Of a stretch of 22,070 bases of DNA, positions 7,141 to 22,070 are shown one piece after another. The notes beneath the pieces are model-generated. The model did not search any database and had not been told where the DNA came from. It saw nothing but the letters and a program-made list of their open reading frames with translations. Position 1 is the first letter of the stretch. The number at the start of each line of letters is the position of its first letter. Origin of the DNA: Promethearchaeota archaeon (lineage in GTDB: Archaea; Asgardarchaeota; Lokiarchaeia; Sigyniarchaeales; SOKP01); assembly GCA_019058295.1 (NCBI GenBank), contig JAHPZI010000018.1, positions 73,578 through 95,647 of the forward strand. Direction: 5' to 3'. Both the position numbers and the translations under genes were made by a program.

Positions 7141-8337
7141 ATTATATCTTTTCTCCAAAAGGATGATTTATCTCCTATAAATTGTATAAATTGTGGATAT
7201 AAAATAGTCAAACCTTATCCAAAAGATAAAATATGCCCTAATTGTAGTAAGAATTTTCTTATTGAGGAAAAAAAAAAGAAGAAAAAAAAGAAAAAAGGAA
7301 AAGTAGGAGAAAAAATACAAGAGCAACCTCAAGCAAAACAATTTGAAACAATAGAGAAAACAGCATCATCAAAATTTCAGGGCAAAGTAAAAGTAAAGAA
7401 AAAAGAACAAGATTTGTCTTTAGAAAGCGATAAAATCGAATTGCTAAAAGGAGAGTATATTAAATTACTCGGTATTGTATCAATCGAAAGAACCCCTCTG
7501 TTTTGTAGTAATGAAAAATATAAATTCTTACTCGAGCTTACGAACAACTTAGATTTTATTGCTACGAGTATTTTAGGGGGAGTTCTAGATAAAATGCTCC
7601 TTATCACTGAGAATAATGAAGAAGAAAAGTGCCAGTTTTTTGTAAAAAAAGATATAATTTATATAGTATATGGTTCCTTTCCAGAAAAGAAAGGTGGATG
7701 GATTCTCGAACAGATGGCAAAACATTATAATGAATTAGTAATGGGCAAAAACGTAAATGAATTAGAAAAATTAGAAAAATATCAAATTGAAACAAAATTT
7801 AAAGGAATTACGAAGTTTATTTTAAATGAATATCGAGAAATGCAAGAAGTTTTTTCTGATCAAGAAATTCCGTATGTAGAAGATAAAATTAGAATCGATT
7901 ATCTTGGCTTATCCTCTAAATCGATTGGAGTTATATCACTTTTATTAGGGGAAGAAGACTTAAATGTCGAAACTCCAGGCGCTGGCGCATTCGAAGATCC
8001 AGCCGAAGAGATAGAGATGAAAGAATCTGTATTAACCGCCAAAATAGAAGCAATTGCAGCAAACACCATTGGAAATACAAATGCGATGCCTAAGTGGATT
8101 GCTGTTAAATTAGGATTTCAAAATTATAGATTCTTAACCTTTAAAAAATTCGAAAACGATTACTTCTTGTATTTCCTTAGCGAAGGAAATTTAGGAAAAG
8201 TTGAAAAAGTTGAAGATCAATTAACACCTTCTTTAAGTCAGGTAACGGATAAATCCTTTTCTGGAAATTTAAGACCGTTTAATACATTAAAATTAGAATT
8301 GAAAGATTTTTTTGATAAAACTAGAGAATTTAATTAA
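7141..8337 (+). CDS. Zinc-ribbon + Lys-rich linker + tandem longin/roadblock-like domain protein (start uncertain; track calls 7414)
   Basis: The frame is open from 7141 (after TAA 7138-7140) into the 7414 ORF and encodes CINC-x12-CPNC and K9. Downstream are two beta-beta-alpha-beta-beta-beta-alpha-like patterns resembling longin domains; the fold is inferred. Confidence 0.6.
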   Translation: MISFLQKDDLSPINCINCGYKIVKPYPKDKICPNCSKNFLIEEKKKKKKKKKGKVGEKIQEQPQAKQFETIEKTASSKFQGKVKVKKKEQDLSLESDKIELLKGEYIKLLGIVSIERTPLFCSNEKYKFLLELTNNLDFIATSILGGVLDKMLLITENNEEEKCQFFVKKDIIYIVYGSFPEKKGGWILEQMAKHYNELVMGKNVNELEKLEKYQIETKFKGITKFILNEYREMQEVFSDQEIPYVEDKIRIDYLGLSSKSIGVISLLLGEEDLNVETPGAGAFEDPAEEIEMKESVLTAKIEAIAANTIGNTNAMPKWIAVKLGFQNYRFLTFKKFENDYFLYFLSEGNLGKVEKVEDQLTPSLSQVTDKSFSGNLRPFNTLKLELKDFFDKTREFN

Positions 8338-8367
8338 CCTAATTTTTAATAAATTTTAAAGTAATCA

Positions 8368-8649
8368 TTATTTTTTCTTAAATTGTGATTTTATCTTGTC
8401 TTTATACTCTTTGCCCTTCTTTTTAGCAGTTGAAAATAAGGAATGAAGTTTTTTTGTTTTTTCTTGCTGTATTTTTTGAGATATTTGCTGCTCACCAAAA
8501 TCCTTCTTATGATTCTCAGTCCCACATTGTTCGCAAAATATCGATTCTTCTTCTTCTTTTATTAAATTATCAATTAGGTCTTTTGGAAATTGCCAACCAC
8601 ATTCCTTGCAAAGAAATTGAATATCATCATTAACATGCATTGTTTTCAA
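8368..8649 (-). CDS. Small zinc-ribbon protein with basic C-terminal helix
   Basis: CKEC...CEQC pair and Lys-rich tail. The start may be the ATG at 8640. Confidence 0.75.
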   Translation of the reverse strand: MKTMHVNDDIQFLCKECGWQFPKDLIDNLIKEEEESIFCEQCGTENHKKDFGEQQISQKIQQEKTKKLHSLFSTAKKKGKEYKDKIKSQFKKK

Positions 8650-8809
8650 TACTTGCCTGAGATTAATATAATTAATTAATAACCTAACTAGCGATATTTA
8701 CTAATTATAATAATATTTTCTTAATTTAAACATAATTATTATTTTTTAGAAATAAAAATAAAGAAATAATAAATAATATCGAGAAATAAAATATTTTGAA
8801 AGATTTAAA

Positions 8810-12636: not shown

Positions 12637-13572
12637 TTATTGGATAAGTTGAAGAATTAAATTTTCCATTTGAGGCTTAGCGGCTTCTATTTTATCTAAA
12701 ATATTGATTGTTTTTTCTAAATTATCTTCTTCCTCCTCTATAATAAATAACAAATAAAACTCTAATCCTCCAAAATTCATTACTTCAACTACACCACTAA
12801 ACCGTTGACCGCTTTCAAACTTTTCTGAAAATTCGAATAAATCACGATTTTCAGCTATAATTCTTTTTTGAACCGTAATGTACATATCATAAATTTTCAA
12901 TTTCTCTTGTAGATGGAGATGAGGTCTATAATATTCACCAATAGTAATTCCCCTGGAATCAAATAAAGCTATTAATATGGAATTATAATTTTTACTTATT
13001 TCAGCAAATAAATGAGAAATCATCTCTATTTTATCAAATAATAATGATAACCCGCTCGAAAATGCGTCCATTACCGATTTAATGTCGTATATACTCGTTT
13101 CGAAAAAAAACATGTCAAACGCTTGGGAATACTTGGCTAAATTTTGTTTTAAAGTCAAGATCTTTTTATTAATCTCTTTTTCTTTTAGAATCTGTGGATC
13201 AAATTTATGAAAAAGGACAGCAATACGTGGATACATCTGCTCTTCTTTAAAAAATATTAATATTTGATCTAAATAATCTAATGATTCAATATAGCGCTTA
13301 TAATCCTGTGCATCAATTACATAATAAATTAAATCCATGCCACCTAAAAATTTTCCTGGTTTTTTTAAATAATCCTCTCTATAGAATTCTTGCCCTCCAA
13401 AATCCATTCTAATAAATTCGATACCTAGAAATTTGAAAGTATCTCTATCTACTCTTCGGGTTGGTATTAATTTAGCAATTTCATCTTCGAACCCAAATCG
13501 CTCTGTAATTGCTGTAATGATGCTTGTTTTTCCTGCGTTGTCTAATCCGAGAAATCCAATTTTTTGAACCAT
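12637..13572 (-). CDS. Arf/Rag-like small GTPase with C-terminal roadblock/longin-like domain
   Basis: G1 GLDNAGKTS, G2 PT, G3 DFGGQ, G4 HKFD, G5 TSI; C-terminal about 130 aa with LIALFDSRGITIGEYY...FYLLFII. Confidence 0.9.
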   Translation of the reverse strand: MVQKIGFLGLDNAGKTSIITAITERFGFEDEIAKLIPTRRVDRDTFKFLGIEFIRMDFGGQEFYREDYLKKPGKFLGGMDLIYYVIDAQDYKRYIESLDYLDQILIFFKEEQMYPRIAVLFHKFDPQILKEKEINKKILTLKQNLAKYSQAFDMFFFETSIYDIKSVMDAFSSGLSLLFDKIEMISHLFAEISKNYNSILIALFDSRGITIGEYYRPHLHLQEKLKIYDMYITVQKRIIAENRDLFEFSEKFESGQRFSGVVEVMNFGGLEFYLLFIIEEEEDNLEKTINILDKIEAAKPQMENLILQLIQ

Positions 13573-13582
13573 TTTTTTAACT

Positions 13583-13589
13583 TCACCTC
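13583..13589 (-). promoter_or_regulatory. Shine-Dalgarno site of the GTPase gene
   Basis: GAGGTGA on the minus strand, 10 nt before the ATG at 13572. Confidence 0.6.
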
Positions 13590-13739
13590 GTAAAAATAAG
13601 ATGAAAAAAAATTCTCTAATTATTTTGAATTAGAACTTAATTAAAAAGTAAGGTATTATAGTATTTATATTATTAAAAAATGAGATAAGATCTAAAAATT
13701 AATAATATTTGTTCTAACTAATTTAAATATTTCTTAGAA

Positions 13740-14021
13740 TTATCCACCCGCTAATGGAACGCTCAAATGAATGTTGTCTCCATCCTTTAGGGCAGTTTTA
13801 TAATTATTCAAATATTTAATATTCCTCCCGTTTACTAAGATAAGAATCTGTTTGTCTAATTTTTTTTTACTTTTGTTTAGCAATTGAACATCTAATTTAT
13901 GGCTGTGATCTTTTATAAATTTAGAAATTACTTCTTCAATAGTACTTCCATTATATTCTATAGATTTCTCTTTAATCTGTAAGTAAAATATGTTTAATAA
14001 ATTTAAATTTACTTTTGCCAT
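13740..14021 (-). CDS. MoaD/ThiS/SAMP/Urm1-family ubiquitin-like sulfur carrier
   Basis: 93 aa; ILILVNGRNI, LKDGDNIHLSVPLAGG with C-terminal di-glycine. Confidence 0.92.
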   Translation of the reverse strand: MAKVNLNLLNIFYLQIKEKSIEYNGSTIEEVISKFIKDHSHKLDVQLLNKSKKKLDKQILILVNGRNIKYLNNYKTALKDGDNIHLSVPLAGG

Positions 14022-14144
14022 ATTTTTTCAATAATAATAAAAATTATTTCCATTTTAAGGTTAATTCTAATAAAAAAAAAAGAAATTCATTTTGATTAAA
14101 AAAATATTTATTTTATTTTGTCTAATCACAATATTGAATTATAT

Positions 14145-15368
14145 TCAAAAAATTTTAAATTCTTCAATATTATTTAAGCTTTCCAGGATTAAATCCTTTA
14201 AATTTAACGATTTATATAAAGTTTTTAGCTCTTCGATGGTTATTTCTTGATTTTTAGGTTTAAATTGACAATAATCTATATTGACTAGATCTCTTGATAT
14301 TTTGTTTATCATTTCTTCAACATTATTTGACTCTAAACCTATAGTTGGTGTGAAAACAGGATATTTAGAAAATAAATAATTGAGGGCAATTGATTCTAAA
14401 TCCACTTCATCTGGACATAAAAAAGTATTATTCAAACTAACGCCGTCAGATATCGCCCTTATTCTATCAAAACCTTCGATATCAAATTCTTTTAGCATTA
14501 TAGATTGAGATTCAAATCTGATAAGTCTGCAGATTGCGCATATATATTTCTTCTCTTTTAAAATATTTTCTATATTTTCTATTATTTTTATTAGATTAAC
14601 CTTTCTGATTATAAAATTACGTTTTGGAGAATAATTTGCCAATTCATTCCAATTAGATAATTGTGATTCTAAAAAATACTCGTCATTTGTCAATTGAAAT
14701 AAGATTGGATAAATTTCGCATCCCCTTCTCATCAATAAGAATCCAGCTAATAAATCGCTTAATCTTCCAATGTCAGGAACCAAAATCTTTTTATTTTTCT
14801 CAATCGGTAACCCGCCCCATTCAGTCTTTATTATCTCAGTATATATATAAGAGAATTCACCTCGAACTTCAATATATATCTTTTTCATTGGATTTGACAA
14901 ATTTACTTTTAAATTAAGGTTTTTAAAATTATCCATAATTGCCTGTCCTCCTTTTACAGCAATATCATGTGAAGTATATTCATGTTTTCCAGATCTTTTA
15001 ACTCTAAGAGCAAAAGTATCTCCTTTATGTAGAATCTTTTCTCCTACTAAAATTAATTTTTCGACAATATTTTTAATTCTATTTGAAGTTCTTAACGCAG
15101 GGTTAAATGAGTAAATCCCAAAAACTTTTTTTAACACTTTTATTGCGTTTGAAATCTCCTTATTATTGAAAAAGAAAAGAATTCTTGCCGAATCTTTAGT
15201 TAATTGAAATTTATAAAATGGAATTCCAGATCGAGCTAAACTGATTTTGATATTTGAAATCAGAATTTTTAGCATCCTAATTTTTACTTTCCTTGATTTA
15301 AGCCAAATCTCTGGAGATGGATTTATCTTGATTAAATTATACAATTCTAAAGGAGGTTGATTTTTCAC
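14145..15368 (-). CDS. ThiI-like THUMP-domain protein with degenerate PP-loop
   Basis: EIWLKS N-terminus; THUMP (TFALRVKRSGKH...VNLSNP...IEVR); GGLP; LLMRRGCEI; CAIC and late DYC. The SGGxDS PP-loop is replaced by DIGRLSD. Confidence 0.85.
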   Translation of the reverse strand: MKNQPPLELYNLIKINPSPEIWLKSRKVKIRMLKILISNIKISLARSGIPFYKFQLTKDSARILFFFNNKEISNAIKVLKKVFGIYSFNPALRTSNRIKNIVEKLILVGEKILHKGDTFALRVKRSGKHEYTSHDIAVKGGQAIMDNFKNLNLKVNLSNPMKKIYIEVRGEFSYIYTEIIKTEWGGLPIEKNKKILVPDIGRLSDLLAGFLLMRRGCEIYPILFQLTNDEYFLESQLSNWNELANYSPKRNFIIRKVNLIKIIENIENILKEKKYICAICRLIRFESQSIMLKEFDIEGFDRIRAISDGVSLNNTFLCPDEVDLESIALNYLFSKYPVFTPTIGLESNNVEEMINKISRDLVNIDYCQFKPKNQEITIEELKTLYKSLNLKDLILESLNNIEEFKIF

Positions 15369-15411
15369 TTTTACATCAAATTCAAATAAATTTTAGTTAA
15401 GAAATTTAAAA

Positions 15412-16992
15412 TCAAGTTAATATAGTAGTTTGATATCTGCCAATTACTTTTTTTTTACCCGTTCTTAAGTTATGCTCTGTTAAAATTATTAGACCATCTT
15501 TATATATATCAATTTCAATAAAATTTTCATCAAAATGAATACCTTGAAGATTTCCTCCGTTTGAAAATATTGAATTATCTATTTTTACGTTAAACGATAC
15601 GCTTGGTGAGCTATTTAGAACAAGATCTATCTGAGAGCGAGCAAATTGAGATAGAGCATCTCCTGAATCAATTAACTCTGTCTTCCAAACACTTAATGGT
15701 GTCGGTATTAAATTATGATAGCTGCATACTCCAAATATTTTTTGATGACTAAGATTTAACACTTTTTCCATGAATTTATGTAATTTTTTACGACCAATAT
15801 AACCTTCTTTTGAGTCTGGTCGTGTTGAATTAATTCCTTGAAAATATATTTTTTCCTTTTCGTATAATGGATCTAAGGAACCAATATAATGTTCCCAATA
15901 TTCCCAAGCTGGAGGTTTTGAATCTGAATAACCGGGAACAGCTATATAGGGGTGTTGAATTTCTGCTAATTTTTCTTCAGCTAGTTTAAATTCTTCTTTA
16001 TAGCTATGTTTTGTTAGGTTTCCAGTATGAACAACTAAATCTATGTCTCTAATTTTGTTAATCTCATCAATTGTATCATTAAAATTTGAATTTGGTTGTT
16101 CCGAAATCTCAGTATTACATATTTGAATAAATTTGCAAAATGGTTTTTCGTTTATTTTAATTTCCCGCGGAACATAATACTTAATATTACGATGAATCTC
16201 TTTTTTAGGAATTTCTTCTAGAATTGGTAATAGTTTAAAATTAAGTGTATTTCCACTAATGTCAATAACGCTATATGTAAAAAGTTCTCTGTATCTTGTT
16301 TTATTACAACAAAATGTACCTGCGTTATAAATATATAAATCTTTATTAGTGCTATTCAAAGTATATATATTTGAAATATGTCTATGACCATTTAAAACTA
16401 AATCAGTATTTGTATCAATTAACATTTGAAGCATATTTCCCGAATCATCTATGGCAGATCTCTCTTTTCCCGTATTTGGAATCGGAATAAGTTGATGATG
16501 GAAACAGACGATTTTTAACTTCTTTTCTCTTTCAGGCTGCAATAGTCGTTTTTTTACCGCATTAATCGGACCATGGTGAATAACGCCTCCAGGTAAATCT
16601 GGTTTAGTGCTATCTATTCCTATTATATAATCATTCGAGTCTTCGAACTCAAAATGCCTCTCTCCAATGAGTTCTTCAAATAATAAATATCCTACATTTT
16701 TAGCATCATGATTTCCAATTAAGTAATATATTGGAGCCTTTGATATAGGATTAAATTTCTTCATTTGTTCTATCGCATATTCATAATCCAACAAAGTTCC
16801 AGATTGAGTGATATCTCCTAAATGAAGAAAGAGAGTGACATTTTTAATTTTATTAATTTTTTTAATTCCCTTGTCGAATGCTTTTATATTAAATTCAGTA
16901 CCCGACGGAGTCATATGTGTATCTGAAATAATTACAATTCTTTTCTTGGTATTATGATTATTTTTCATTTTAACTGTCTGATCTAATGCCAT
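15412..16992 (-). CDS. Tandem calcineurin-like metallophosphoesterase (Icc/CpdA-like); second domain degenerate
   Basis: Domain 1: SDTH, GDIT, GNHD, FHH, GHRH. Domain 2 equivalents: CNTE, GNLT, GYSD, YHN, NSSP. Confidence 0.88.
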   Translation of the reverse strand: MALDQTVKMKNNHNTKKRIVIISDTHMTPSGTEFNIKAFDKGIKKINKIKNVTLFLHLGDITQSGTLLDYEYAIEQMKKFNPISKAPIYYLIGNHDAKNVGYLLFEELIGERHFEFEDSNDYIIGIDSTKPDLPGGVIHHGPINAVKKRLLQPEREKKLKIVCFHHQLIPIPNTGKERSAIDDSGNMLQMLIDTNTDLVLNGHRHISNIYTLNSTNKDLYIYNAGTFCCNKTRYRELFTYSVIDISGNTLNFKLLPILEEIPKKEIHRNIKYYVPREIKINEKPFCKFIQICNTEISEQPNSNFNDTIDEINKIRDIDLVVHTGNLTKHSYKEEFKLAEEKLAEIQHPYIAVPGYSDSKPPAWEYWEHYIGSLDPLYEKEKIYFQGINSTRPDSKEGYIGRKKLHKFMEKVLNLSHQKIFGVCSYHNLIPTPLSVWKTELIDSGDALSQFARSQIDLVLNSSPSVSFNVKIDNSIFSNGGNLQGIHFDENFIEIDIYKDGLIILTEHNLRTGKKKVIGRYQTTILT

Positions 16993-17154: not shown

Positions 17155-18285
17155 TTATTCTTCAGCAAGCGCTTTTTTTTCCTTCTTTTGTTGCTTCTTC
17201 ATCTCTTTATAAGAATAATAAGCCTCTTCTAGGACATTTAAGAATTCAATTAAAACTCTGTCTGCTTTTGACTTAACATCATATTCTTTAATAATTGTAT
17301 TTAAGATATATTTTGGAAAGAACGTGGAAATTTCAAAATCAGAGACCAAAGCATAATATTCAATACCTTTAGATTTTTGAAAAACTACAATCATTTGATT
17401 CTCCCATAGTGCTTTTAAAGCTTCATCTAAGTCATAGACACCTTTCTTTTTTAATTTTTCAAGTTCATTTTTAGTAGGGAACATGGTTCTTAATAATTTT
17501 AAGCATTCATAAACCTGAGGATCCATCACTAACTTAATTAGTTCCAAATTGTCTTCTTTTGATGGCTTATAATCTTGAAAAAAATTTTTAATTGAAATTT
17601 CATATTCATTTACAAATTTCTCTGGCAAGCCTTTCTCTACAGGATTTTTCAACAAATTAATAGGGGGTCTTCTAGTCATTAATATATCATTTAAGAAGAA
17701 AAGTAATTCCGATGGCATACCTTTAACCGATGCTTCTTTAATAATATCTTTCCTAATTAAATCAACCATAAGAGCATCTAAGTCTACGAAACCGTGTTTA
17801 TATTGATCTCTTAACCAAATCATAAGTTCTGATTTTGAAACAACTCCTTCTTCTCTAAGTCTTTCTATAATCATCCTTTTGATTTCATCTTGATAAGTAA
17901 CAGCAAGCTGCTGCTCTCGATTCAAGCTTGGAAAGATTGAAATACGTTGAAAGAGAGAAGGAATCATAGGCACAAATTCTTTATTCTCAGTGTTTTGTAA
18001 TATAACTCTCGAAATATCAGATAATCCTGCTTCATATGCATCTGGATCGTCGTCTAAGCTTAAGAGTAAGACAACATAATAACGTTTGTCAGGTCCTGAA
18101 TAATAAGACATGATATTCAAAGACCCTACCATTATACTGATAATTCCCGCTTCACTGCTATACTCATGCGTACTGTAGATCTGCATCAAAGTACTGTCCA
18201 TAACATTAATTTCTTCTGGATATTTTGCCTCAATCTTAGTTCCAACACGATCGTCCCATTTCATAACTAATAATCCTACAGGCAT
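17155..18285 (-). CDS. Longin (uDENN/NPR2-like) domain protein with two winged-helix-like modules
   Basis: Starts GLLVMKWDDRVGTKIEAKYPEE (hhhhF/W-D-x-x-x-G-x-x-h-x-x-x-YP longin start). Two later helix-helix-helix-wing segments (IIERLREEGVVSKSEL...LIRKDII; CLKLLR...KNEL...LWENQMI). AAGGAG lies upstream. Confidence 0.7.
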   Translation of the reverse strand: MPVGLLVMKWDDRVGTKIEAKYPEEINVMDSTLMQIYSTHEYSSEAGIISIMVGSLNIMSYYSGPDKRYYVVLLLSLDDDPDAYEAGLSDISRVILQNTENKEFVPMIPSLFQRISIFPSLNREQQLAVTYQDEIKRMIIERLREEGVVSKSELMIWLRDQYKHGFVDLDALMVDLIRKDIIKEASVKGMPSELLFFLNDILMTRRPPINLLKNPVEKGLPEKFVNEYEISIKNFFQDYKPSKEDNLELIKLVMDPQVYECLKLLRTMFPTKNELEKLKKKGVYDLDEALKALWENQMIVVFQKSKGIEYYALVSDFEISTFFPKYILNTIIKEYDVKSKADRVLIEFLNVLEEAYYSYKEMKKQQKKEKKALAEE

Positions 18286-18314
18286 TTTTTATTGAGCTAC
18301 TCCTTTTTGTGTCC

Positions 18315-21300
18315 TTATTCCTTAGGACGTTTCTGTTTTTTAAATTTATAAGAATTTATTTTGGCCTTCTTAGCTTTGACTTTTGCAAGATTTTTCTCAC
18401 TAAATTTTACTCCTAAGACTTTATTTAGCGGAATTCCGATTTTATCCCATTGTTTCCTATACTTTTTGAAGAATGCTTCATCTCTGTGAGGATATACATA
18501 ATGTACTGGCATCGTATGGCCTTTCTTAATGACGCTTTTTAAAGCTTTCATTTTTTTCACGAATTTGGGCGTTTTTATAATTCTTAGCTGTCGATAGCCT
18601 AATATGCTACCAACGGCAGTAGCGATTGGAATTACTGTCGCGAGAATTATTAGCAATCTGATATCTTCTATTGGTCTAACCGAGTTTATATTAATTTCCT
18701 TGCGTTTGAATTCAAATTCATCATCGGCATAAACTGTAATAACAAATTTAAAAGAACCCTCAGGCACCTCTTCCAATTTAACTTCATATATTCCATCTCC
18801 TTTATCGTCCATCTCTCCGTCACCATGCTCCCAAGTATATTCTACCCTCGCACCTTCTATAACTTCGCCGAAATCTAAATCATTTAATTGAACTCTAATT
18901 GTAACATCTTCTCCGGGTTTTATGTTTATCTCGTCATTCTTGTACTTCAAAAGTTCGACTTCACATTGAATTCTTGCAACATTTATTCTAATAGTAACTG
19001 ATTTGGATTGGTAATTTGTCTTGCCAGCAAAAATGATTAAAAATCGGATTCCAATATCTAGATCTACGGTATTTATCACAATCTCATATTGAGAAACTTT
19101 AGTAAAGTTTCTGGGGCTAAAACCCTCTCCCTCAATAGTCACCGTTGATTCATTAATTATTTTTCCTAAATCAATATCAGAATAATTAACTTCAATTAAT
19201 AACCTTTCTCCATAAGGAAGTGTCAGTGATGGATCAAATGTTAGATCCTTTTCTACAGCCCCACCTTTATATTTTGCTGTTATTTTTATCTCTGTTAGTC
19301 TATTAATTATTTCAACTATGATGTCTATATCTTGAGGTTGATAGCCAAATTTTTGTGCTACAACTTTTAAGAAATTAACTCCAGCACCTAGCTTAGGATC
19401 ATCAGAATCTATAGTTATGGAATAATTAACACCATTAAAGTCTAATGTTTCATTAAAGCCTTCCCCTATTAATCTTAAATTTGCATCCAAAAGGGATTTT
19501 TTCGTGTCGTTATCAAAAAAGGTTATATTGATTTGGAAATAATCGTTCACTACAACTTTAATGGATGGTTTGCTAGTTTTATCCTCTAGTGGTGATGAAA
19601 CGGAGTTCGATAAAAATAATTTATAATCTGTTTCTATGTCGATTATTACGATTGAAAAAGATATTGATTGCGAAGTATGATTATCAGCTTGAGCAAAGAC
19701 AGCTAGAAAATTTGTAATTCCGGCTAAATGCGAGGTATTTAACGTGTATTCATAATACACAGGGCCTTCTGTTAAACCTATATTTTCAAGACCTCCTCCA
19801 GTGAGATTTATGGTTGCTCCACTAATTTTAGAATTTAAAGCTGAATCGTTATAAAACATGACTATATTTACAGTCGCGTTTGTATACACATTGATGACTG
19901 CGTTTTCAACCCTTTCCGTTCCCGCTATAAATAATTGAGCATCTGAATCCGCCTTAGTTACATCAACTCTAATTACTACTGATTGAACTTCAAAATTATT
20001 TCTCACAGCTAAGATAGTTAAATAATGAATTCCTATGCCTAAACTTTTTGTATTTATTGTTAAATTGTATTTTTGTCCATTTTCTTCAAGCTCATCTGAA
20101 AAACCCCCTCCTAATATCGTTACCGTAGCTCCTCCAATATGAATCTCGGTTGGGTCTATTCGATACGTAATAGAAACATTCAATATTTCATTCCATTTCA
20201 ATATGATGGATTTATCCACATCTGCAGTTCTATCTACTCCGTTTAAGGAAAGATTTAGAAAACTTTCTTTTGGTGTTATCTCTACTGTTAGAATTAATGA
20301 TTGGGGTTGATAATTAGCTTTCTGGGCTAAAATGTTTATGAAATTTACTCCTGGATTTAAATCATTCGTATTTAAAGTTAAATTGTAGTGTTTAAATGGA
20401 ACATTTTCAAGAATTTCAAAAACTTTACTGGGAATTGTTCCGTTTACCGAAGCCCCAGCAATGTGATAGTAGGGTGGTAATAACTCATTATAAATCACGG
20501 TAATATTTATTGTTTCATTGATGCTTCGTTTAATTGAAGGTGTGGCCGTTAAGTCTACTCCTTCGATAAATAATGTAAAATTAGTCAGAATTTCTTCTAT
20601 AGAAATTATGAGCAATATGGATTGAGGTTCATAATTATCTGCTTGGGCATAAATGGTTAAAAAATTAATTCCTTGATTTAAATCCGTCGTATTAATAAGT
20701 ACTGAGTAATTATTATTGTGAGCATTAAAATCTAAAAGATCAGAAATTCCAGAACCGTTTATAGATACTAAAGCACCCGTAATGGGATCATGAGGAGATA
20801 ATTCTTCCTTATATGCAAGTGAAATATTTAATAATACATTTACAGTAAGCGTAATATCTTCGTTCCCTGTATAATTTACCCCGTTTAAGAATAAATTATA
20901 AAGCGATCCTTTTTCAGCAACATAGACGGTTATGTCCTCAGAACTCAGAGTGTAATTATCTTGTTTAGCATTTATTGTTAAAATTCTAACGCCAAGACTA
21001 AGATTCTCAGCAGGCATTAGAATAGTATATCGCTGACCATACCGAGTTAAAGATTTTGCCTCAGCTAAACCCCTAAGCTCCACTGTTGCGTTATCAAGAG
21101 CGCTATCGGTTTCAAAGTCTCTGTACGAAACTGTTATATTTAAAGTCTCTCCTATTTTAGTTTGATAAATTTCTGGAACATTTGAACCATTAATAGTAGT
21201 TATTAAATAAGTTTCTCTGTTGGTAACAGTTATAATAATAGTTTCTGAAGCGGAACTGTAGTTTATCTTAGTGGCAAGAATCGTTAAATAGTGAACTCCT

Positions 21301-22070
21301 AAGCCTAATTCATCGGAATTAAGGACCGCCGTGTAGTTTTGACCGTCAAAATTTAAAGGCTTTGCCGGTATTCCCGAGCCTGCTATCGATACGGTGGCAC
21401 CCGTTATGAAGGCTCCTGTATTCGTATCGTTATAAGCGATGCTGACGTTAAAAGCTTCGTTCCACGCAATATCGTACGTTTTTTCGGTCGTTCGATCTTC
21501 GAGATTTATGAAAATATCATCAATTAATGTAGATCTATCAGTAACAGTTATAATAATATTCACTGAAGCAGAAGTGTAATTCACCTGATTGGCTAGAATT
21601 GTTAAATAGTGGACTCCCACGCCTAATTCATCGGAATTAAGGACCACCGTGTAATTTTGACCGTCAAAATTTAAAGGCTTTTCCGGCAATCCCGAGCCTG
21701 CTATTGTAACAGTAGCTCCTGTGATGAAGGTTCCTGTATTCGTATCGTTATATGCGACGCTGACGTTAAAAGCTTCTTTCCACGCAATTTCATACGTTTT
21801 TTCGCTCGTTCGGTCTTGGAAATTTATGAAAATATTATCAATTAAAGTAGATCTATCAGTAACAGTTATAATAATATTCACTGAAGCAGAAGTGTAATTC
21901 ACCTGATTGGCTAGAATTGTTAAATAGTGGACTCCCACGCCTAATTCATCGGAATTAAGGACCACCGTGTAATTTTGACCGTCATAATTTAAAGGCTTTG
22001 CCGGTAATCCCGAGCCTGCTATTGTAACAGTGGCTCCTGTGATGAAGGTTCCTGTATTCGTATCGTTATA
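18315..22070 (-). CDS. Giant single-pass surface glycoprotein of tandem ~105-aa Ig-like repeats; 5' end beyond the window
   Basis: The frame stays open to 22070 (YNDTNTGTFITGATVTIAG...), so the 21965 start is internal. About 10-11 repeats with I.GATV.I.G and LG.G..FLTI.A...NY motifs; TM helix 18594-18656; basic cytoplasmic tail of about 92 aa; many NxS/T sequons. Confidence 0.9.
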   Translation of the reverse strand, partial: YNDTNTGTFITGATVTIAGSGLPAKPLNYDGQNYTVVLNSDELGVGVHYLTILANQVNYTSASVNIIITVTDRSTLIDNIFINFQDRTSEKTYEIAWKEAFNVSVAYNDTNTGTFITGATVTIAGSGLPEKPLNFDGQNYTVVLNSDELGVGVHYLTILANQVNYTSASVNIIITVTDRSTLIDDIFINLEDRTTEKTYDIAWNEAFNVSIAYNDTNTGAFITGATVSIAGSGIPAKPLNFDGQNYTAVLNSDELGLGVHYLTILATKINYSSASETIIITVTNRETYLITTINGSNVPEIYQTKIGETLNITVSYRDFETDSALDNATVELRGLAEAKSLTRYGQRYTILMPAENLSLGVRILTINAKQDNYTLSSEDITVYVAEKGSLYNLFLNGVNYTGNEDITLTVNVLLNISLAYKEELSPHDPITGALVSINGSGISDLLDFNAHNNNYSVLINTTDLNQGINFLTIYAQADNYEPQSILLIISIEEILTNFTLFIEGVDLTATPSIKRSINETINITVIYNELLPPYYHIAGASVNGTIPSKVFEILENVPFKHYNLTLNTNDLNPGVNFINILAQKANYQPQSLILTVEITPKESFLNLSLNGVDRTADVDKSIILKWNEILNVSITYRIDPTEIHIGGATVTILGGGFSDELEENGQKYNLTINTKSLGIGIHYLTILAVRNNFEVQSVVIRVDVTKADSDAQLFIAGTERVENAVINVYTNATVNIVMFYNDSALNSKISGATINLTGGGLENIGLTEGPVYYEYTLNTSHLAGITNFLAVFAQADNHTSQSISFSIVIIDIETDYKLFLSNSVSSPLEDKTSKPSIKVVVNDYFQINITFFDNDTKKSLLDANLRLIGEGFNETLDFNGVNYSITIDSDDPKLGAGVNFLKVVAQKFGYQPQDIDIIVEIINRLTEIKITAKYKGGAVEKDLTFDPSLTLPYGERLLIEVNYSDIDLGKIINESTVTIEGEGFSPRNFTKVSQYEIVINTVDLDIGIRFLIIFAGKTNYQSKSVTIRINVARIQCEVELLKYKNDEINIKPGEDVTIRVQLNDLDFGEVIEGARVEYTWEHGDGEMDDKGDGIYEVKLEEVPEGSFKFVITVYADDEFEFKRKEININSVRPIEDIRLLIILATVIPIATAVGSILGYRQLRIIKTPKFVKKMKALKSVIKKGHTMPVHYVYPHRDEAFFKKYRKQWDKIGIPLNKVLGVKFSEKNLAKVKAKKAKINSYKFKKQKRPKE
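21223..22070 (-). repeat. 318-bp near-identical tandem repeats (106 aa), 2 full units + 1 partial
   Basis: GTAACAGTTATAATAATA at 21223, 21541 and 21859 (period 318). Confidence 0.95.

Follow-up and report, generated by a model that had tools for sequence, protein, structure and literature searches.

A conserved Asgard gene pair for a giant surface protein and an NPRL2-like longin/winged-helix protein, with a predicted contact through the cytoplasmic tail

What is a cytoplasmic protein that resembles subunits of GATOR1 doing directly behind the gene of a giant surface protein? The question is raised by a stretch of 22,070 nucleotides from a Loki-type Asgard archaeon (Promethearchaeota archaeon; assembly GCA_019058295.1, contig JAHPZI010000018.1; positions 73578-95647 of contig C18 in genome G000; hereafter the window), whose right edge coincides with the end of the contig. 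On its minus strand, a gene for a giant surface protein (P0002) is followed after 29 nucleotides by a gene for a longin and tandem winged-helix protein (P0001, hereafter lwh). Our answer, to which we assign a probability of roughly 0.6, is that the window holds one copy of a conserved Asgard two-gene cassette, in which lwh serves its cognate surface protein as a dedicated subunit in the cytoplasm, possibly as part of a GTPase switch. The cassette itself and the modelled contact between the tail of the surface protein and lwh are well supported computationally; the link to a GTPase and the direction in which information would flow are inferences. The parts of the two genes, in the order in which they are read, are as follows.

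18669-22070, minus strand: ectodomain of P0002, a giant type-I surface protein, with immunoglobulin (Ig)-like repeats of about 106 amino acids (from the translation)
21223-22070, minus strand: tandem repeats of 318 bp (2.7 copies, 91% matches) in the outermost part of the ectodomain
18597-18668, minus strand: single transmembrane (TM) helix of P0002, a hydrophobic stretch in the translation
18408-18596, minus strand: conserved cytoplasmic tail, 63 amino acids, delimited by the tail alignment (A2)
18318-18407, minus strand: variable lysine-rich C-terminal end of the tail (translation and alignment A2), before the TAA stop at 18315-18317
18286-18314, minus strand: spacer of 29 nucleotides with AAGGAG (18300-18305) 14 nucleotides before the ATG (from the sequence)
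17155-18285, minus strand: gene for lwh, 376 amino acids, an open reading frame (ORF) with its ATG at 18285
17926-18285, minus strand: longin domain of lwh, residues 1-120 (topology of the AlphaFold2 model)
17668-17919, minus strand: winged helix 1, residues 123-206 (AlphaFold2 model; weak profile match to the winged helix of Mnd1)
17320-17622, minus strand: linker helix, residues 222-238, and winged helix 2, residues 243-322 (AlphaFold2 model)
17158-17307, minus strand: C-terminal helices, residues 327-375 (AlphaFold2 model)

The ORF of P0002 (18315-22070, minus strand; 1251 amino acids visible) is open at its 5' end because the contig stops inside it, so that neither its N-terminus nor its upstream neighbor is in view; the near-identical 318-bp repeats are the likely cause of this break in the assembly. 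The ectodomain has weak Pfam matches to TIG/IPT and FixG_C (Ig-like) and carries 41 N-x-S/T sequons in its visible part (3.6 per 100 amino acids) versus none in the 376 residues of lwh, a difference that fits an outside/inside arrangement of the two proteins. As the first-pass annotation of this DNA had claimed, P0002 does not end at its TM helix but continues into a basic cytoplasmic tail (93 amino acids, isoelectric point [pI] 10.6), and the three tail motifs picked out there turn out to be the three conserved blocks of alignment A2. The family pattern, of which the window copy is a divergent version, reads Y-R-x-I-Q-x-A-R-I-P-x-F-V-K-K ... I-K ... Y-P-S-K-E-E ... K-W-x-x-L-G-L-S-L-x-x-I-L-G; P10, K14, and I23 are invariant, 13 further columns are conserved to at least 90%, and a TM helix equivalent to that of P0002 stands before the tail at all homologous loci.

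The second protein could be modelled with high confidence. The AlphaFold2 model used throughout was built with a 69-row alignment (A1) and reached a predicted local distance difference test (pLDDT) score of 95.2 and a predicted TM-score (pTM) of 0.88; a run from the single sequence (pLDDT 36) was discarded. Residues 1-120 form a beta-beta-alpha-beta-beta-beta-alpha-alpha unit with a five-stranded sheet, the topology of the longin superfamily (DSSP: E2-11, E15-22, H30-43, E47-53, E56-62, E69-76, H81-97, H105-120), and align with many solved longins at Z 10-13 across about 110-120 residues. Among the 69 homologues, the conserved residues of this domain are the hairpin W10-D11-x-R13-x-G15 (with R or K at position 13 in 50), P23, and S60-Y-Y-x-G64, and an N-terminal M-P-x-G is kept in 59. 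Tandem winged helices and the C-terminal helices follow, the whole being acidic (pI 5.2; winged-helix segments pI 5.3-6.8).

An N-terminal longin followed by two or more winged helix-turn-helix repeats is the layout of NPRL2 and NPRL3 (PMC3747258), the subunits of GATOR1 whose yeast counterparts are Npr2 and Npr3 of SEACIT, and the model of lwh has the same layout, in agreement with the first-pass annotation. When the whole model was searched with Foldseek, the matches below an E-value of 1e-3 were chains of GATOR1/SEA complexes only (9v0j_B at E 3e-4 and probability 0.99, 8adl_S, 9o5d_D, and 9v0j_A), aligned at full length over 355-470 columns; a difference in how the domains are oriented would account for the low TM-scores of these matches. 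When only the longin was compared, VIA-align likewise placed GATOR1 chains of NPRL2/NPRL3 size on top (9o5d_D, Z 13.2, root-mean-square deviation 2.4 over 118 residues; 7t3b_B, Z 12.3), followed by yeast Npr2/3 (Z 11.8), VAMP7 (11.7), and a Lokiarchaeal longin (11.2), the lead of the GATOR1 chains being only 1-1.5 Z units. Folds of the type found in adaptor protein (AP) complexes and the signal recognition particle receptor (SR) are among the structural matches of the longin as well. The closest named ESM-Atlas clusters are Npr2 families, and a language-model atlas search returned solely unnamed Asgard clusters.

The likeness fades at the level of sequence. A profile search with lwh against PDB sequences gave weak winged helix-turn-helix matches and no NPRL2, and at E <= 0.1 lwh matches neither Pfam NPR2 (PF06218) nor NPR3, the genome's best PF06218 match (E 0.11) lying elsewhere. 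Pfam and NCBIfam have no family for lwh, for the tail, or for the protein P0122. The first-pass annotation had also pointed to the N-terminal longin of DENN-type proteins; we rejected a DENN/FLCN-type layout, as the region after the longin consists of two winged helices and helices with no DENN or dDENN domain, DENN chains align over residues 1-120 or 1-129 alone, and no DENN-family Pfam match was found. The fold class is already known in Asgard archaea, where "NPRL2-like longin" is an annotated category (Liu et al., bioRxiv 10.1101/2020.10.19.343400; PMC9834061). What appears to be new is the coupling of such a protein to the tail of a surface protein: we found no description of it in the literature searched, outside which most subscription papers fall. 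The label "undescribed" in the first-pass annotation does not hold for the fold.

Is the pairing of the two genes more than an accident of gene order? A phylum-wide search yielded 29 loci (L010-L038), every one of which has a same-strand ORF with TM helix and tail upstream of lwh, at a gap of -4 to +29 nucleotides, and the same pair, often as two or three tandem cassettes, occurs in 16 further genomes of family f1 (20-kb loci). Tail-bearing genes number exactly two in the genome to which the window belongs, and an lwh comes after each of them; the second, on contig C3, encodes a 1459-aa protein with a signal peptide, and the two lwh proteins (P0001 and P0123) are 69% identical. Both pairs of family f3 are adjacent. 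Farther afield, family f7 of the same class keeps the two genes adjacent but in reversed order and has one orphan tail gene, while in the distant classes f9 and f27 a sequon-rich single-pass protein lies directly upstream of lwh and shows K/R-I-P-x-[FI]-[VI]-[KR]-K right after its TM helix, then a longer acidic tail. Taken as a single-pass giant protein with an R-I-P-x-F-V-K-K ... W ... G-L-S-L tail that is followed by, or fused to, lwh, the cassette includes the window copy. Conservation of the gene pair and its tail motif across Asgard genomes, to which the first-pass proposal had looked for support, is thus found in families f1, f3, f7, f9, and f27 and in fusions.

The fusions are the most direct sign that the two products belong together. 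An exhaustive search of 1.84 billion representatives recovered at least nine clusters at 50% identity in which giant protein, TM helix, tail, a short linker, and lwh form one polypeptide, with no methionine at the tail/lwh junction; two of them were checked on their contigs (80 kb and 21 kb) under translation table 11. Nothing beyond the general fluidity of Asgard gene order speaks for a chance adjacency of two unrelated genes, and the presence of the pair at more than 45 loci in many genera and several classes, its fusions, and its duplication as a unit already refute that explanation, whose probability we put at practically nil.

Some loci depart from the usual order or spacing. In two of them (L067 6520-7632 and L068 6683-7786), an lwh without an upstream tail gene stands directly before a giant gene that is followed by an lwh of its own, which, with the reversed order in genome G128, suggests that the order lwh-giant gene also occurs. 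The gap of 29 bp that the first-pass annotation reported in the window is confirmed, and a scan for bacterial-type promoters and terminators, itself uninformative, found no minus-strand terminator-like site in 18286-18314; in relatives the spacer measures -4 to +3 nucleotides. Most tail ORFs (L013-L076) terminate in E/K-G-G-x-x. We considered this ending as a protein motif but set that idea aside: judging from sequence, E-G-G at the end of a tail is probably what the Shine-Dalgarno GGAGG, by which ribosomes bind the overlapping next gene, becomes when it is read in frame. The window copy differs from its relatives in having its AAGGAG in the spacer and not within the tail ORF. One cassette, in genome G147 (L074 7804-8436, minus strand), has a tail of 211 amino acids that continues beyond the conserved 63 residues as a long acidic Pro/Glu-rich repeat with units like E-Y-P-E-V-E-E-E-P-P-E-P-E.

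How might the two proteins touch? A complex model of lwh with the tail as partner, built from alignments A1 and A2 in three runs with three controls, gave interface (ipSAE) scores of 0.70, 0.72, and 0.69, the best control reaching 0.02; among the calibration cases, 58 of the 80 solved complexes attained this mark, as did 2 of the 110 pairs that were mismatched, counts that are only rough where custom alignments are used. The runs share at least 88% of their contacts, with a partner pLDDT of 65-66. In the predicted complex, tail residues 10-60 contact lwh residues 200-212 (the wing of winged helix 1, whose strands are 200-209), 229-241 (linker helix), and 322-360 (C-terminal helices). The contacts of lowest predicted error join lwh 328-356 to tail residues 12-24, and it is mainly on the C-terminal helices that the tail's amphipathic juxtamembrane helix is predicted to dock. 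Near-invariant residues on the two sides of the predicted interface are P207, F236, Y239, P324, and L352 in lwh and P10, F12, V13, I23, K24, P36, K38, W50, and G54 in the tail, and within residues 121-376 of lwh, conservation is somewhat higher in the interface columns (0.52) than in the remainder (0.42; p 0.016). An interface between tail and partner had been anticipated in the first-pass annotation, and one is indeed predicted; it is made by the winged-helix part and the C-terminal helices of lwh and not by the longin. The longin is left free in the model although its mean conservation (0.48) is comparable to that of the interface part, which argues for a further partner.

The same model bears on the idea that lwh is a membrane-sequestered transcription factor, whose winged helices bind DNA and which the tail retains at the membrane until a signal arrives. 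Residues 248-311 of winged helix 2 do have a weak profile match to ArsR-type regulators (PH1932, 1uly_A, E 1.9e-4), and residues 240-376 match SrnR and Phr in VIA at Z about 8.5. Set against these, lwh and its winged-helix segments are acidic, its covalent fusion to a TM protein in nine clusters would bar release without proteolysis, the winged helices of NPRL2/3 are protein-interaction modules, and in the complex model the winged-helix surfaces of lwh are occupied by the basic tail. We consider this explanation very unlikely.

Together, these observations can be ordered into a working mechanism for the cassette. Gene 1 would supply a giant, N-glycosylated, single-pass surface protein whose ectodomain varies freely while the TM helix and the basic juxtamembrane tail of about 63 residues are conserved; gene 2, translationally coupled to it, would supply the cytoplasmic NPRL2-like lwh. 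The amphipathic helix of the tail and the conserved blocks behind it would dock on lwh at the wing of winged helix 1, at the linker helix, and at the C-terminal helices, and the conserved longin would remain free at the membrane as a platform, perhaps for dimerization or for a small GTPase. A recurrent candidate for the latter is an Arf-like GTPase with an N-terminal extension that is encoded beside the cassette in several lineages; if it does occupy the platform, the cell surface would be coupled to a GTPase switch for signalling by the surface protein, its localization, or its turnover.

A simpler alternative needs no GTPase: lwh could be a structural or biogenesis subunit that caps or clusters tails (for example through longin-longin dimers), tethers them to the cytoskeleton, or aids insertion or turnover of the surface protein. 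Longin domains often dimerize, and a Lokiarchaeal longin dimer (8yqg) is among the structural matches; the two genes occur 1:1, translationally coupled and sometimes fused, and many cassettes, including the visible part of the window and locus L059, have no GTPase gene adjacent. What this alternative explains less well is that the longin is as conserved as the interface part and bears a hairpin motif like that of GTPase platforms, and that cassettes of four separate lineages have genes for Arf-like GTPases next to them. We regard it as rather unlikely.

The GTPase genes themselves fall into two groups with different relations to the cassette, represented here by the following rows.

12637-13572 of the window, minus strand: RagA/Gtr1-like GTPase (Pfam Gtr1_RagA, 1.1e-21), context only, co-oriented with the cassette and 3.6 kb downstream of it
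8119-8697 (plus strand) and 14512-15771 (minus strand) of locus L006: small GTPase genes around the C3 cassette

The Arf-like group is typified by P0274 (N-terminal extension of about 115 amino acids; Pfam Arf, 8.6e-18). Genes of this type stand beside cassettes in four lineages, namely on contig C3 of the window's own genome, in genus g11, where five genomes have the gene between cassettes, in the fusion lineage (38.6% identity, E 8e-66), and in f9. The C3 cassette is flanked by a 419-aa N-extended Arf-like GTPase upstream and a 192-aa Rab/Ras-like GTPase downstream on the opposite strand, with FtsZ further upstream. A second N-extended Arf-like GTPase of the genome (346 amino acids, 56% identical to the C3 copy) lies at C19:511-2483 (L085), 510 bp from a contig end; the gene immediately before it on that strand encodes a Rag-like GTPase of 299 amino acids. 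Both fusion genes that were checked are flanked by roadblock-Rab-like GTPases: at L083 (14349-15272, minus strand) and L084 (11017-11937, minus strand), a GTPase of about 306 amino acids, roadblock-like at its N-terminus and Rab/Ras-like in its C-terminal half, is convergent after the fused giant-lwh gene, and at L083 a 651-aa protein with two Arf-like domains lies upstream of it.

The Rag-like GTPase of the window invites a different reading, in which the cassette is a forerunner of GATOR1: lwh would be a longin-type GTPase-activating protein (GAP), or an exchange factor of guanine nucleotides (GEF), for this GTPase, and the surface protein a sensor of nutrients or ligands. In its favor, the longin is closest to GATOR1 NPRL2/NPRL3 chains, a Rag-like gene lies within 10 kb in 10 of 16 family-f1 loci, and lwh keeps the glycine after the first strand (G15, in 65/69 homologues) and the W-D hairpin, the spacing W10-D11-x-x-x-G15 equalling that of the W33-D34 and G38-P39 motifs highlighted in GAP-type longins (PMC12290439). 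The window protein also has K67-R68 in its beta4-beta5 loop. The details turn against it. A proline follows G15 in just 7/69 homologues. Position 68, by topology the putative equivalent of the R78 finger of NPRL2, is Arg in 4/69 and mostly N, G, Q, or P, and the paralogue in the same genome has V-G at K67-R68. Because lwh lacks a Pfam NPR2 match and the candidate finger position is variable, GAP activity is not supported as a prediction for the family, nor did the analysis bring any sign of GEF activity; the role of GTPase regulator that the first-pass annotation proposed for lwh is plausible.

Gene order points the same way. In family f1, the cassettes belong to a block that runs phosphoesterase, ThiI-like, SAMP, Rag, small kinase-like gene, eS25, methyltransferase, cassette(s), RuBisCO-like, two leucine-rich repeat genes, and HisC. 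The part conserved in the window (12637-16992, minus strand: metallophosphoesterase, ThiI-like, SAMP/MoaD-like, and Rag-like GTPase) lies downstream of the cassette, as opposed to upstream in the other genomes, and either cassette or block must have moved. Phosphoesterase, ThiI-like, and SAMP genes thus separate the Rag gene from the cassette here, and eS25 and the methyltransferase do so elsewhere; the Rag gene changes sides from genome to genome, and in f3, f9, and f27 none lies within 10 kb. Given these intervening housekeeping genes and absences, we read its proximity as inherited family-level synteny and take the Rag-like GTPase of the window for a neighbor and not a component of the cassette. 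A Rag/GATOR1-like function is unlikely, more so than the structural alternative above.

Comparison with known systems lends the GTPase part of the cassette hypothesis some context. Among prokaryotic systems, those that we regard as nearest to the cassette are the Streptomyces conservon (CvnA membrane kinase, CvnB roadblock/MglB-like, CvnC, and CvnD MglA-like GTPase) and the Group 1 Rup neighborhoods (PMC4316618), in which genes for a membrane-spanning protein and for a member of the roadblock/longin superfamily likewise lie together with one for a small GTPase of the Ras superfamily. The membrane partner of lwh is a giant glycosylated type-I surface protein where the conservon has a histidine kinase, a longin with two winged helices takes the place of the single roadblock domain as the platform, and the GTPase is Arf-like, N-extended, and not always adjacent. 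As a functional analogy only, the combination of a longin-containing factor, a membrane-protein tail, and an Arf-family GTPase recalls the N-domains of AP sigma and mu and the SRX domain of SR-alpha with SR-beta, with two differences: the modelled tail sits on the winged-helix and helical part of lwh and not on the longin, and no coat or translocon components are encoded near the cassette. Unlike the GATOR1 subunits, lwh is predicted to bind the tail of a glycoprotein at the cell surface, to which it is in some cases fused. In GATOR1 the paralogues NPRL2 and NPRL3 form a heterodimer that is bound to DEPDC5 and acts on Rag GTPases; two or more lwh paralogues per genome do exist, and no DEPDC5-like partner was seen, though no search was aimed at one. 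A broader possibility, which we advance tentatively, is that the cassette is a prokaryotic receptor-adaptor-small GTPase unit, in which an NPRL2-like longin platform, recruited by the tail, would control or position an Arf-like (or Rag-like) GTPase dedicated to it, and thereby a forerunner of the logic of eukaryotic AP/COPI, SR, and GATOR/Ragulator systems.

Several observations weigh against the cassette hypothesis as a whole or in part. The interface score expresses the model's own confidence, with the rough calibration noted above, and within the conserved 63-aa tail, contact and noncontact positions are about equally conserved (0.72 versus 0.68). Some lwh-like genes, namely those of f21 and several paralogues in f7, f9, and f27, lack a tail-bearing neighbor. 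A comparison of the lwh profile with the N-terminal extension of P0274 by hhalign found no relationship. Beside the window copy no Arf-like GTPase is in view, the contig ending inside the giant gene, and contig C19 with its Arf-like gene was rejected as a continuation of that gene, its first 428 bp being an unrelated plus-strand ORF.

The interest of the cassette lies in what it would connect. Asgard genomes encode dozens of longin/roadblock proteins and small GTPases without assigned partners, and pairs are hard to predict since GTPase genes, as described for MK-D1, are generally not in operons with longin/roadblock regulators (PMC10933270). Here a concrete wiring is offered that is amenable to mutational tests: a 63-aa tail, a predicted docking surface on lwh, natural fusions, and a recurrent Arf-like neighbor. 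The surface proteins of such cassettes may be candidate genes for the "complex surface proteins" seen by electron cryotomography of Lokiarchaeal cells (PMC9834061). The cassette is in this sense a testable link between the Asgard cell surface and eukaryote-like GTPase machinery, and if the GTPase link is true, coupling of surface to GTPase through longin platforms would be older than eukaryotes.

There is also a hint that the window copy is expressed. Parts of lwh (17335-18229) and of the tail (18487-18638) are represented, at 90-99% identity, in metatranscriptome contigs from four runs in three studies; no contig spans the junction between the tail gene and lwh, and the hint is a weak one because DNA can be carried over into RNA libraries. 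A maximum-likelihood tree joins P0123 with its orthologue from G173, a genome of the same genus, and puts P0001 as sister to that clade (support 100/99). The window copy is therefore a duplicate at genus level, whose tail has diverged and whose ectodomain is a different one, built of repeats. Older cassette duplications are found within the family, and the cassette duplicates as a unit. The genome also has more remote relatives of lwh: a full-length lwh-like gene that is 26% identical (C28:171474-172523, plus strand), a 138-aa longin-only protein (C25:10765-11133, plus strand), and a match to the winged-helix part only (C14:4116-4700, minus strand).

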